The notes beneath the pieces were generated by a model. The model worked only from the letters and a program-made list of their open reading frames with translations. It had not been told where the DNA came from and searched no databases. Shown here in pieces: positions 4,427 through 57,940 of a stretch of 64,000 bases of DNA. How positions within the stretch are numbered: the stretch's first letter is position 1; every line of letters begins with the position of its first letter. Where the stretch lies: the NCBI GenBank assembly GCA_964016885.1, contig OZ024741.1, positions 206,274,001-206,338,000 on the forward strand. The letters are read 5' to 3'. Position numbers and translations under genes: made by a program. This DNA comes from Eledone cirrhosa (taxonomy: Eukaryota).

Positions 4427-5170
4427 GTTGTAATAAAATGAAAACGAAATTTCATTTCTCACTCTTAGTACGGCACTTACTTAAATGTAAGTATGTATGT
4501 ATACGTACATACATATATGTATACAGACGTACAGTAGCATGCATATATATATATATATATATATATATATATATATATATATATATATATATATACATAC
4601 AGGTACACATACATATATGTACGTATCAGTTTAGCGGACGCTTATTATAGCGCCCGCTTTGTTCGTTTGTAAACAAACTGAACAGCCTGAATTTATGCCG
4701 TACGGTGTTAAGGCAACCACGTCACCTTTTTGTTCAACACTGACACAGGAACGATGTACTAGTTTCAAGCTTGTTAGCTATCATCAGCATCGTATACCCT
4801 TCTGCCAGATGGTTGAACGTTCGAAAGTATATACTTTCCTTATGAAAATTAACGGCTGAGCAGCCTAATTTGCATATCGAGTGAGTCCGGCCAGGCGTAC
4901 CGAGAACGACAAGTTGTAATAAAATGAAAACGAAATTTCATTTCTCACTCTTAGTACGGCACTTACTTAAATGTAAGTATGTATGTATACGTACATACAT
5001 ATATGTATACAGACGTACAGTAGCATGCTAAACTGATACGTACATATATGTATGTGTACCTGTATGTATATATATATATATATATATATATATATATATA
5101 TATATATATGCATGCTACTGTACGTCTGTATACATATATGTATGTACGTATACATACATACTTACATTTA
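4427..5170 (-). repeat. HHR family A unit (retrozyme/PLE-like), tandem plus inverted segment, between (TA)n tracts
   Basis: GTTGTAATAAAATGAAAACGAAATTTC recurs at 4427 and 4913, and an inverted segment follows from ~5027. Homologous to copies at 47176, 53397 and 57205. Confidence 0.85.
4751..4793 (-). ncRNA. Minimal type I hammerhead ribozyme (family A)
   Basis: Minus strand reads ACGATG-CTGATGA-TAGCTAACAAGCTT-GAA-ACTAGT-A^CATCGT: full core, 6-bp stem I, AGCT/AGCT stem II, palindromic stem III and GUA cleavage site. Confidence 0.85.
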
Positions 5171-5384
5171 TATATATATATATATATATATGTGTGTGTG
5201 TGTGTAAGTGAGTAGCGTGTGTGTGTTTGTTTGAATGTATGAGTGTTGGTGTGTGCGCGCGTATGTATGTGTGTGTGTGCGCGTGTGTGTATGTCGTACG
5301 TATAAGTGTCAATAAGTGAGTTTTTTTTATGCGCTGGGACATAGAAATAGTCGGCCTGAATACCCGATCGCGCATTTAAACCAC

Positions 5385-5607
5385 TGGGAGTGAAGAACCC
5401 CTAGCCCTTGTCAGGGCATTCTTCTATGAGAAGGCATCTCAGGAAACTGGGTTAACTCCGACATAAACCCTGCGGCTCAGTAGTTACCGGTGATGTTGAT
5501 CTTTTCTTCTTTTCGGATTGTAGTTACTGTCGCTCAGAGAGTGGGATTGGCTCAGTGCACAGTCTTTCCTCACTTTAAAAATATTCATCACGCACAGGCA
5601 TTGCACG
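5385..5607. repeat. Unclassified interspersed repeat, also present at 1-125
   Basis: GATGTTGA..GAGAGTGGGA(C/T)TGGCT..TCTCACT..GCACAGGCATTGC is shared between ~17-125 and ~5490-5604. Confidence 0.55.
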
Positions 5608-5619
5608 ATTGCATTCCAA

Positions 5620-53967: not shown

Positions 53968-56438
53968 GTATATATATATATATATATATATATATATATA
54001 TATATATATATATATATATATATATATACATGTACCTATGTATATTCATATATATATATATATATCTGTATGTTTATGTGTGTATGTGTGTGCCAGTGTG
54101 CATATGTGTACATACATAAAGGTATATATAATAATGAAATAGGGTACCATAGAACAATTAACCCCAGTGATTTACAGTAGATTAATGCCTTTATATTATA
54201 TCCACCACTAACTATAAAATATTGTTAAAGAACTGACACCCTCACGAAACAAAAAGAAGAAAGATTTATAGAAAACCAGAACCATGACAAAAAGAGAACG
54301 TGGATATGTTTAATATAAGACAATTACTAAATGCCAATGCGTCGTTAATGGGTAATAAAATGTTGGAAATATAAGTAATAGACATTAATTTTGTGTCTGG
54401 CAGTTTAATACAACTGACAGAAATTAAATGGAAAACGAAAATGGACTGCTAGGAATTTGATAATATAAACTATTACGCTTTTAAGTATATTAATCAGAAG
54501 AACAGTGAATATGATTTAACCTATTTTGTGCATACTTGATATTGCTATTGATATTGATATTGCTGATGCTGTCGTTGTTGTTGTTGCTATTGCATTTTAA
54601 ATACAGTTCAGCTCTAATTGAAACGAATTACGATAAATGACGTTTTCAGCGATTTCCGTTCCGGTGTTTTGTAATGTCCCACTGTGTTCTTTTTAAAACC
54701 TTTTTATAGTTAAGAATGGAAGGGCAGTGTCTAAGACATTCTCCGGGTCCTCTAAGATTGGTGAAAAGGAAGGACGAATGTATCCCCAAATCAGAGACCT
54801 ATTCTAAATGCTTACAGTTAAGTGAACTCCGTTAAATGGCGCCGAAAGCTCGGTGGAAGTATTAAAATAGCAACGGATTAAGTCAACTTCGCTGAGAGAG
54901 TAAAAAGCCAGAATAAATATCACTTGGAAAGTTAGTTTAGATGTTAATATTGCCGTTGTATTTTAATCACAGATCAGCCTTAATAGAGAAAAACCTCTAT
55001 ATGTCACTTTCAGCTATTAACATCGCAACAATTTTTCTATATAGGAATTTTGTTTGCTTCAGTCTATAGTGTGGAATTTAAGGTATTTTAGATCGTATTA
55101 CTTGAATGCGCATGGGTTAGTGGTTAGAGTATCGGGTTTAAATTGGTGAGGTTAAGAGTTCGATTCTTAGATCGGGCTTTGCGTTGTGTTCTTGAGCAAG
55201 ACACTTTATTTCGCGTTGGCGTGGAGAGGGGATACTGGTATGCATGGGCGACTGCTGGTCTTCCACAAACAACCTTTCCCGGTCATGTGCCTTGGAAGGG
55301 AACTTTCTAGGTGCAAATCACATGTTCATTAGTGACCGAAGGGGGTCTTTACCCTTTACTATTAGGTAGAACGACCATGAAGACGCTATTTCTGTGGCTC
55401 ATATTATTGTTGACCTATTACTAGTAGCATTCCAGTATAGAATACCCAACCTTTATTCAGATATATTGAATGTAGGATTCCACTATTGAATGACTTCTGT
55501 TGTTTTAAAATGTTAAAATGAGATTTGAATGAATGTGGCTGTTAATTCTAGCAGCTAAAGTGACTGCAGAGAGCTTTTCTGTCTGTCACATGTTGTTGGA
55601 AGTGATTGTTACAGTTGCTTTTGTTTAGTTCTAGCTTTTACCTACTTGCTATTTGTTCAAATAGTGCTACAAGAACCATATTATCAAATGTTTATCTCTA
55701 ATTTTAGATTGTAGGATATTACATGGAGAAAATTTGGCTGCTATGTATAGCAGGTGTAGCGACAGTATAATGACCACAATCCAGAAGATAATTTTGAATA
55801 TATTCTAATATGATTCCTACTATTAATTTTAGTAATAGAGACAATGAACTTAAATGTGCAGCTGTAGCTAACTTTCAAATTGGGTTTAGTAAATGTTTTG
55901 TGATATCGGTGTTTTGGAATGGTATTCCTGACTAAAAGGGAAATTATACCACTATATCTTTGGGTTATTTTAATTTAAAGTGACTCGTATCGGATCATTT
56001 AGTACGTAATGCATACATAAAAACCACTATTATCATTGTAATATCCAGCAGAGCTCTCTTGCCGTTATAGAAACGGCCTCTCAAATACAACCCCATGATT
56101 TCTACTTTGAATTAATACATGGTAGAATGTATTCCTACAAAATTCAAAAAAATACAGGAAGGCCGATGTTGGAATGCCTTTGATCAGAAAAGATATTCAC
56201 GATATAAAAGCTTACCTGTACCTAAACAACAGCCTTTTTAAGGTAACAGAAGGGGGATTTCAGTGTTTGTTAATATACTGCACTCACACATTTGTTTTTC
56301 TATGAGGTGCATATATATATTATGATGTCCATTTAAAACTAATAGCAATAAATTAATGGCAGACTAATGAGAATTCTGTCACAAACTGTAAATTTATGTA
56401 AGTGATCATTGAGGCATTTAATTTCATTACTGCACTAG

Positions 56439-56597
56439 GGCTTGGTGAACACAACCACAAGGATATGGTCCGAACGTGGAAGAGCCGAACTCCCATTGTC
56501 ATCGCCTCCATCTCTCTCGCCCTCCCCATCTCTCCGTATAGTGAGCAAATGGGGTCCCACGTGCTGGCCTCCCCACAGCCCCGGCGGACAGAATGCA
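56439..56597 (+). other. Possible 159-nt internal exon in unique GC-rich sequence
   Basis: TTTCATTACTGCACTAG|G acceptor and GCA|GTATGT donor. Length is a multiple of 3 and two frames are open, but I do not recognise the peptide. Confidence 0.35.
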
Positions 56598-57204
56598 GTA
56601 TGTATATAAATTTCACTAAATATTTTAGAGTATGGCTTTCAGATTCAGCTCTGAAAATGTTCCTAAAACTATCTAGTCGATGATTAGTTCTATAACTAGT
56701 TCTTTGCAATAAAAATACGATGTGTAAACATCAATTTTTATAGGTCATCGCCATCAAACGATACGATCAAAATATCGAAGATTTTAATGCTATTTGTTGT
56801 TGCCTATTAAAACACATTACAAATAAACACAAAAATGATTTTGTTCAGTCCATGATACAGCCAATATTATGATAAGTAATGAGTGTTACTAATGTCCAAA
56901 TTCAAAAGCGTTTTGGAGAGGCGGTTTAGATGTAAATAGCTAGAACTAAATGTGTAAAATTACACATTTGTCTATACGGTACGACATTAAATCACTTAAA
57001 TTAAACAAGTATTATATCAATTCATAGCGATAATTAGGTGTTGCTTACTTCATATTAATCGTAATCCACGGTATCTAATATTTACTTTACAACCTCACTT
57101 ATCTACCTATTTCATTCTCCACATTACATGTATATATATATATATATATATATATATATATATATATATATGTATGTAATATATATATATATATATATAT
57201 ATAT

Positions 57205-57940
57205 AAACGGAAAAAATGAAACGAAATTTCATTTCCCACTCTTAGTACGGCTGTTACTTAAATATAAGTATGTACATATATGTATACAGACGATAGCTAA
57301 TCAGCTTGAAACTAGTACAGCGTTCCTTTGACAGTGTTGAACAAACGAGCAACGATGGTTGCTAGACACTACGGCTTAATACGGGATGTTTGTTTACAAA
57401 CACACCGAGCATTATAATAAATGTTCGGTGAATCCATACGTACATATATATATGTGTGCATGTATGTATATATATATACATACTACTGTACGTCTGTATA
57501 CATTTATATATGTATGTGTACATACTTATATTTAAGTAACAACCGTACTAAGAGTGGGAAATCAAATTTCGTTTCATTTTTTCCGTTTATCGTTCTCGGT
57601 GCACCCGGCCGATTAACCCACTCGATATGCAAATTGGGCTACTCAGCCGTTAATATGCATAAGGTAAGTATATACGTTCAACAATCTGGCAGGAAGGTAT
57701 ACGTTGCTGACGATAGCTAATAAGCTTGAAACTAGTACAGCGTTCCTTTGTCAGTGTTGAACAAACGAGCAACGATGGTTGCTAGACACTACGGCTTAAT
57801 ACGGGATGTTTGTTTACAAACACACCGAGCATTATAATAAATGTTCGGTGAATCCATACGTACACATATATATATATGTGCATGTATATATATATACATA
57901 CTACTGTACGTCTGTATACATATATGTATGTACGTGTACA
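57205..57940 (+). repeat. HHR family A tandem dimer (420-bp period) with inverted 5' piece; HHR at 57701-57743 and partial HHR at 57289-57323
   Basis: GACGATAGCTAA occurs at 57289 and 57709. HHR reads ACGTTG-CTGACGA-TAGCTAATAAGCTT-GAAACTAGTA^CAGCGT. Confidence 0.88.

Follow-up and report, generated by a model that had tools for sequence, protein, structure and literature searches.

In the 64,000-nt stretch of Eledone cirrhosa DNA analyzed here (contig OZ024741.1, positions 206,274,001 to 206,338,000; hereafter the window), BLAST and alignment revealed four loci, at 4, 47, 53 and 57 kb (loci 1 to 4), that hold one repeat without an open reading frame (ORF), which we call family A; the proposal of an initial annotation, made from the sequence, that four dispersed loci carry the same non-coding unit was thereby confirmed. 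Full units were 409, 412 and 486 nt long, the last because the internal TA tract of the 4 kb unit has expanded, and the repeat period at the 57 kb locus was 420 nt. The GC content of the units was 0.36–0.38, and identity between loci, compared over 151–154 nt 3' of the hammerhead core, ranged from 80.8 to 93.5%. Each locus contains 1.0–1.6 units with a single intact hammerhead ribozyme motif and represents one insertion in (TA)n. The longest ATG frame in doubled units did not exceed 99 codons, which leaves the unit without coding capacity, and no tRNA was found in family A sequence. The loci are composed as follows.

4426..4911, minus strand: locus 1, full unit of 486 nt with expanded TA tract; tail present, 3' end in (TA)n
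4912..5027, minus strand: locus 1, 5'-truncated upstream copy, matching the full unit of this locus at 115/115 positions
5026..5169, plus strand: locus 1, inverted arm without tail; GC microhomology at the inversion
47176..47282, plus strand: locus 2, 5'-truncated upstream copy, beginning within the internal TA-rich tract
47283..47691, plus strand: locus 2, full unit of 409 nt; tail present, 3' end in (TA)n
53397..53808, minus strand: locus 3, single full unit of 412 nt; tail present
53807..53966, plus strand: locus 3, inverted arm without tail; TAA microhomology, with the inversion located at the unit start
57206..57292, minus strand: locus 4, inverted arm; tail present, GACG microhomology
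57289..57586, plus strand: locus 4, upstream copy truncated within the hammerhead; 5' stem I strand and CUG lost, GUA site (57317) and 3' strand kept
57587..57940, plus strand: locus 4, downstream copy with intact hammerhead, predicted cut after 57737; without tail, ends in (TA)n

Three head-to-tail junctions were mapped (4912/4911, 47282/47283 and 57586/57587), in which the U-rich unit end joins T(A/G)TCG, and the unit at the fourth locus (53 kb) begins at the same junction point. The equivalent junction that had been claimed for three loci was therefore recovered, but the accompanying picture of a tandem repeat was not: the loci are partial tandems with inverted arms, and neither arrays nor a locus with two intact hammerheads were present. 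The order of parts was an inverted arm, a 116-nt upstream piece and a full unit at locus 1; a 107-nt upstream piece and a full unit at locus 2; an inverted arm and a full unit at locus 3; and an inverted arm, a 298-nt upstream piece and a unit minus its last part at locus 4. Partial tandems, with variable 5' truncation and a fixed 3' end, were found in three of the four loci, as were 5'-truncated inverted arms, which show 2–4 nt of microhomology. TA runs account for 3.5% of the window, yet they border all eight outer ends, and each of the three two-ended insertions carries a terminal tail of 53–56 nt at one end only. The inverted arms of loci 1 and 3 both stop at a CTTACAT(TT) site; at locus 4 the main copy stops near this site and the inverted arm is complete, and erosion by the TA tract is possible there. 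Any target-site duplications longer than 4 bp, a feature of retrozymes where duplications occur, would be obscured by the (TA)n flanks.

Partial tandems, an inverted 5' copy, a one-sided tail and a preference for (TA)n are hallmarks of Penelope-like elements (PLEs; PMC8557442 Fig. 2). The tail of PLEs, with a published length of 30–40 nt (PMC8557442), has been traced to reverse transcription starting at either of two internal sites that lie 3' of the hammerhead; during insertion, cleavage and extension affect both strands of the target (PMC11167929). Family A shows the partial tandem, the inverted arm, the one-end tail and the (TA)n or AT-rich target, and fits the insertion features of a non-autonomous PLE. 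We regard mobilization of family A by a PLE as highly probable, and consider it probable, at a somewhat lower level of confidence, that family A is a non-autonomous PLE whose template is a structured RNA in which the unit end runs into the unit start and on which a PLE reverse transcriptase (RT)–endonuclease acts in trans.

A 31-nt core search pattern, derived from the family A copies themselves, gave five matches (4757-4787, minus; 47411-47441, plus; 53651-53681, minus; 57287-57317, plus, with one mismatch; and 57707-57737, plus) and none in 100 shuffles. A generic type I descriptor identified five sites, four of them in family A and one elsewhere; 100 block shuffles gave 0.12 sites on average and never more than one. 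An isolated match to the type I descriptor is located at 32000 (minus strand), beside a TA run. Cleavage is predicted after 4757, 47441, 53651, 57317 and 57737; as initially annotated, the last two positions lie 420 nt apart and the first hammerhead at 57 kb lacks its 5' part. The complete hammerheads outside the 57 kb locus are the following.

4751..4793, minus strand: type I hammerhead, intact, predicted cut after 4757
47405..47447, plus strand: type I hammerhead, with a stem I mismatch (47444) found in this copy only; predicted cut after 47441
53645..53687, minus strand: type I hammerhead, intact, predicted cut after 53651

All four complete copies share one layout, consisting of helix I (6 bp), CUGA(C/U)GA, U, AGCU-loop-AGCU, U, GAAA, CUAG and UA, and no core position except U7 differs among them. 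The broken fifth copy (57287-57317) reads CAGA instead of CUGA, because the inversion cuts through the hammerhead. Stem I is ACGATG/CATCGT at 4 and 53 kb and ACGTTG/CAGCGT, with a U-G wobble, at 57 kb, whereas the 47 kb copy has an A-C mismatch, so that the pairing of stem I described earlier as kept across copies holds at three loci but not at 47 kb. Canonical metazoan hammerheads have a helix I of 6 bp, a helix II of 4 bp and a helix III of 1–2 bp with a palindromic loop of 2–4 nt (PMC4209133), and the four complete copies of family A agree with this type in helix lengths, in the palindromic helix III loop and in the core CUGANGA/GAAA/UH. Minimal PLE hammerheads, as defined in the same paper, have a helix II of 6–8 bp with G10.1-C11.1, a short helix I and an absent or tiny helix III; in family A, helix II is 4 bp long and closed by U-U, and helix I is 6 bp long. 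By these definitions, the label "minimal" in the initial annotation had to be replaced by that of a canonical metazoan layout. U-U at the base of helix II is known from the axolotl retrozyme ribozyme HHR_Amex2, which shares the 2-bp helix III with family A and for its part is a better cutter as a dimer (PMC7229834). Natural hammerheads with GUA sites exist (PMC1636495). All four copies have an unpaired U1.7 and an A at the end of loop 2, features that would allow the tertiary contact described in PMC11875169. The three stems of a double hammerhead alone were calculated at −20 to −21 kcal/mol, and at −12 for the mismatched 47 kb copy. Self-cleavage of the family A hammerhead is plausible in terms of these models. 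Metagenome and viral contigs contained no exact match to the core pattern. The matches to Rfam in the window were rejected as microsatellite-driven miRNA matches below threshold.

Folding of the units as circles revealed 66–70% of bases paired (z of −6.2 to −9.2 for the ribozyme strand, 30 shuffles), that is, the highly self-paired predicted monomer circle typical of retrozymes. A 77-pair structure covering the 5' two-thirds of the unit, which was derived from the same four related sequences that were used for counting, pairs in 96.3% of cells and contains two-sided changes at six pairs, compared with a shuffled mean of 1.5 and with none of 500 shuffles reaching that number; four of the six changes sit in one hairpin of one copy. 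In the full-unit consensus of 126 pairs, 77 were the same in every copy, 10 showed compensatory and 16 one-sided change, and 23 were broken or gapped in at least one copy. An end-to-end helix joins the two ends of the unit, in which GAGUGAG/CUCACUC is replaced by GAGUGGG/CCCACUC at 57 kb, a single event from U-A to C-G. This helix delimits one further feature.

47246..47319, plus strand: junction domain, comprising the end-to-end helix that encloses the terminal hairpin, the U-rich 3' end and the first hairpin

In the modeled structure, the junction domain is likely to be the start site of reverse transcription, and the end-to-end helix suggests that both unit ends evolve jointly as a closed monomer and frame this start. 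Near the 5' end of the unit, ATGCAAAT, which we take to be the octamer motif, is invariant in all four units (47323-47330 and equivalents); to judge from the sequence it could be part of an internal promoter, and it also lies within a predicted helix.

The many hairpins, the internal microsatellite and the good folding on both strands would also be expected of a DNA-level element, either of the non-autonomous Helitron/Helentron type or a miniature inverted-repeat transposable element, or of a satellite spread by recombination, in which the hairpins would have their role in DNA and the hammerhead would be vestigial. Non-autonomous Helitron/Helentron-type elements also have 3' hairpins. Such an origin appears very improbable, since a complete type I hammerhead core lies on one strand, with G-U pairs tolerated there, and the copies combine variable 5' truncation with inversions and microhomology but have no fixed-length terminal inverted repeats and form no long arrays in the window.

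Contigs of four sequencing runs from one study (X1–X4), whose kind is off record and whose matches are no gauge of expression, were compared with 47230-47560 at 80% likeness. The number of matching contigs was 9122, 9225, 10448 and 102 in X1 to X4, respectively, indicating an apparently abundant and diverse family. The best-supported loose end behind the 3' terminus of the unit was (TA)n (65, 72, 80 and 3 contigs in X1 to X4). Among the 24 of 640 rows of loose ends listed, those before 47304-47311 were family A's own junction variants, and none was located at the cut site. Two positions of stem I segregate in X1–X3, 47408 from A to T (55–59% of summed contig depth, a measure that does not equal copy number) and 47444 between G (48–53%) and T (47–51%), and both match the A-U and U-G pairs that are phased in the window copies. 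No variant at a core position occurred among the 40 of 58 variants listed. Contig ends at 47440-47446 were considered as cleavage products and rejected; they were read as assembly-graph breaks because every one of the four runs has them, at the place of the polymorphic site 47444. In the small run X4, the locus-1-type variants 47452G and 47475G stood at ~80%, versus ~20% and ~2% in X1–X3.

These data bear on whether the copies are an independent family at all, or heavily 5'-truncated insertions (solo pseudo-long terminal repeats, pLTRs) of a coding PLE. Truncated elements do leave most PLE hammerheads as single motifs; however, one junction is common to three loci of different subfamilies and is the starting point of the fourth, the 5' and 3' ends of the unit pair and covary, the listed upstream loose ends are the family's own junction variants, and no ATG frame longer than 99 codons is found in the doubled unit. 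From the window and the run contigs, we therefore consider truncation of a coding PLE improbable.

Insertions end 249–330 nt downstream of the cut site; therefore, a linear monomer cut at both ends cannot be the template, which must be continuous from unit end to unit start and intact across the ribozyme, as a ligated circle or an uncleaved tandem. Between a circle and an uncleaved linear tandem we see about an even chance. In the mechanism that we propose for a circle, read-through of a tandem locus would generate a multimer RNA, in which the palindrome ACUAGU would pair two hammerheads for cleavage 3' of GUA; ligation of the released monomer would give a circle whose single hammerhead is weak. 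A PLE protein would then nick (TA)n and begin to copy within the RNA, at either of two reverse transcription start sites that lie 53–56 nt apart, ~195 and 250–270 nt downstream of the cut site. Reverse transcription would copy more than one unit, and priming on the other strand would yield the inverted arm, joined via the 2–4 nt of microhomology.

Several features speak in favor of a circle: the junction remains exact from one subfamily to another, the cut site is the starting point of none of the three upstream partial copies, and the direct-orientation segment at 57 kb spans two GUA sites. The pieces of loci 1 and 4 are 96–100% alike: at 4 kb the pieces are closest to their own locus (115/115 and 143/144), and so are the direct copies at 57 kb (223/232). 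In its fullest form, this account would make family A an abundant, viroid-sized circular RNA that undergoes rolling-circle reverse transcription by a (TA)n-targeting PLE, possibly of the Hydra clade, from an internal start framed by the covarying end-to-end helix; we offer it tentatively and hold it to be rather doubtful. Alternatively, the same non-autonomous PLE might be copied from an uncleaved linear tandem transcript, or from a linear monomer recopied by template jumping with the aid of the end-to-end helix, in which case the hammerhead would be weak or late-acting and the circle would not accumulate. This is a serious possibility, although it falls short of an even chance. It agrees with the insertion of the anole PLE in vitro, which was unaffected by hammerhead mutants (PMC11167929), with the poor cleavage by minimal PLE hammerheads, with the 53 kb inversion point, which coincides with the unit start and resembles a template end, and with those within-locus pieces that are not clearly of one molecule. 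On the other hand, it leaves to be explained a core that, U7 apart, is unchanged in the complete copies and is not touched by any of the listed variants, as well as a junction that is precise in all three cases; moreover, loci of 1.0–1.6 units would shrink with each generation unless the tandem were regenerated, and a pause after exactly one round is also predicted by the circle.

Besides the derivation and clustering noted for the two-sided changes, a number of observations weigh against the reading of family A as an RNA that is processed by its ribozyme and copied by a PLE. The strand opposite to the ribozyme folds nearly equally well (z of −4.3 to −7.6), and the 23 broken or gapped pairs belong on the same side. 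Position 10.1/11.1 is U-U and not G-C, the predicted monomer fold of all four copies pairs the core CUG with the helix III UAG, an inactive state, and the double hammerhead is not the cofold minimum. No match to the Rfam hammerhead family was found among the best 150 of 151 rows at E≤1 in the window, nor at E≤10 in a search with 191 nt. Of nine predicted Xenopus retrozyme dimers, one was cut and eight remained uncut (bioRxiv 10.64898/2026.07.22.740005), and hammerhead cleavage was dispensable for PLE insertion in vitro, as cited above. Three pieces are not clearly derived from their own locus: the upstream piece at 47 kb matches its own locus at 98/107 positions and locus 1 at 100/107, the inverted arm at 53 kb its own locus at 125/136 and locus 2 at 125/132, and the inverted arm at 57 kb its own locus at 83/86 and locus 2 at 83/87; inverted arms may stem from a second RNA, and the compared pieces are mostly TA-rich sequence. 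None of the four loci in the window contains the two intact ribozymes of non-LTR (long terminal repeat) retrozymes. Finally, family A shares no sequence with 10 in-window stretches, which include the flanks of the PLE fragments and the other TA-ending families.

Fragments of PLEs were present in the window.

50868-51918, minus strand: decayed PLE RT with DKT motif, cut upstream by a repeat resembling short interspersed elements (SINE-like) and downstream by a fragment of a long interspersed element (LINE; 49595-50831)
24897-25291, minus strand: GIY-YIG piece, PLE fragment
55819-55911, minus strand: short PLE linker match, PLE fragment

An exhaustive protein search showed 43% identity of the RT fragment to an 806-residue relative (E 4e-31); a word-index protein search with the same fragment gave no match, and Pfam missed both RT pieces of the window and detected only 2 of 10 relatives, both weakly. 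Among 25 relatives of 600–1000 residues, DKT was present in 20, RW(K/R) in 13 and CxCX5C in 12. These three motifs characterize the Hydra clade, a group of hammerhead-carrying PLEs with (TA)n as target (PMC8557442), and by its motifs the in-window fragment appears Hydra-clade-like. A Hydra-clade partner for family A is a guess; Naiad and other PLE clades also target (TA)n (PMC8557442), and therefore the clade of the partner is not fixed by the target.

The window contains several other repeats. A second TA-flanked family of ~200 nt with a long terminal palindrome (22714-22849, 33405-33596, 35425-35495, 47700-47894, 53099-53252 and 58125-58320), in which no hammerhead was found, has three copies that are separated from family A loci by nothing but a TA run, probably as a result of the shared target. 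An inverted pair of A-rich termini with hammerhead-like cores (17556, minus; 18568, plus) spans 17536-18620, ends in (TA)n and looks like another PLE end. A further repeat family (23574-23874, 25906-26338, 30280-31047 and 61400-61726) has hammerhead-like cores (23751, minus; ~30865, plus; 61494, plus) and a common 3' end in (TA)n. An AT-rich, TA-flanked family (35659-35944 and 58974-59600), with a partial-tandem/inverted arrangement and CTGA(A/T)GA cores, is possibly another non-autonomous PLE. A perfect palindrome of ~110 nt (46993-47106) lies directly upstream of the locus 2 TA run, and further long palindromes were located at 19746-19933 and 42154-42563. Other coding remnants include a long LINE frame of 949 aa with RVT_1 (6756-11344, minus), two other RVT_1 LINE fragments (11666-12574 and 36806-39440) and a broken LTR-retrotransposon pol with RT, RNase H and integrase (26607-28908, minus).

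Animal small hammerhead repeats that form circular RNAs, with PLEs as their likely mobilizers, have been published (PMC7229834). Family A shares with these animal non-LTR retrozymes (Cervera & de la Pena 2020, PMC7229834) a small non-coding, low-GC unit, a type I hammerhead, the head-to-tail junction and a self-paired predicted circle, and its unit of 409–420 nt (486 nt with the expanded TA tract) lies at the upper end of their 150–450 bp size range. In contrast to them, it is seen here as dispersed insertions into (TA)n, 1.0–1.6 units in length, in which inverted arms occur and the intact ribozyme is single; its circle and its cleavage are predictions. Family A would thus work like a non-LTR retrozyme, although membership is not established, as two intact ribozymes are lacking at all four loci. 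What the initial annotation had described as a PLE-mobilized, retrozyme-like closed monomer gains from the insertion anatomy, the (TA)n target, the single junction type and the covarying end helix, but not from arrays with two intact ribozymes, of which the window has none.

Animal retrozymes have also been argued to be non-autonomous PLE sequences (bioRxiv 10.64898/2026.07.22.740005, Li, Clavereau & Pollet). The retrozymes of that study, like family A, are ORF-less hammerhead units with dispersed monomers and a proposed PLE origin; the argument there is based on co-occurrence and pLTR homology, mainly in vertebrates, and favors local amplification of a PLE terminus, whereas for family A the anatomy of the insertions provides the PLE link, and the in-window stretches contained no homologous pLTR. 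Endonuclease-positive (EN+) PLEs, in particular those of the Hydra clade (Craig et al. 2021, PMC8557442), share the partial tandem, inverted 5' copy, one-end tail, (TA)n target and hammerhead, but family A has no ORF and a tail of 53–56 nt compared with 30–40 nt. Poseidon PAc of Anolis (Frangieh et al. 2024, PMC11167929) likewise has two fixed 3' ends downstream of the hammerhead, an AT-rich target and priming on both DNA strands; it differs in being autonomous and biochemically tested, with a hammerhead that overlaps the beginning of the ORF and depends on the protein for cleavage. The Chlamys group includes non-autonomous elements, MRC1 among them, that are also non-coding PLE derivatives with pLTRs and head-to-tail microsatellite insertions, but they are algal, and canonical hammerheads are missing from most Chlamys (PMC8557442). 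We found no description of family A in the literature on octopus hammerhead ribozymes and retrozymes, a scope outside which lie Repbase, Dfam and the supplement of PMC7229834, which may list it; the word "ribozyme" was not found in the main text, as far as available, of an Octopus vulgaris repeat paper (PMC13282606).

The element class is already known, and the gain is therefore incremental. The origin of PLE partial tandems and the role of PLE hammerheads are a standing question: a circular template for the partial tandems was proposed in 2014 (PMC4209133), and one in vitro system found cleavage dispensable (PMC11167929). Family A, a 410-nt ORF-less unit with all PLE insertion marks, a near-invariant core and a structured predicted start, offers a compact substrate for distinguishing a circular from a linear template, and it supports the mobilization of animal retrozymes by PLEs through insertion anatomy rather than co-occurrence. 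If the circle reading is true, these insertions would be a direct genomic record of PLE partial tandems made from ribozyme-made circles, and the 410-nt RNA would be a minimal substrate for proof.

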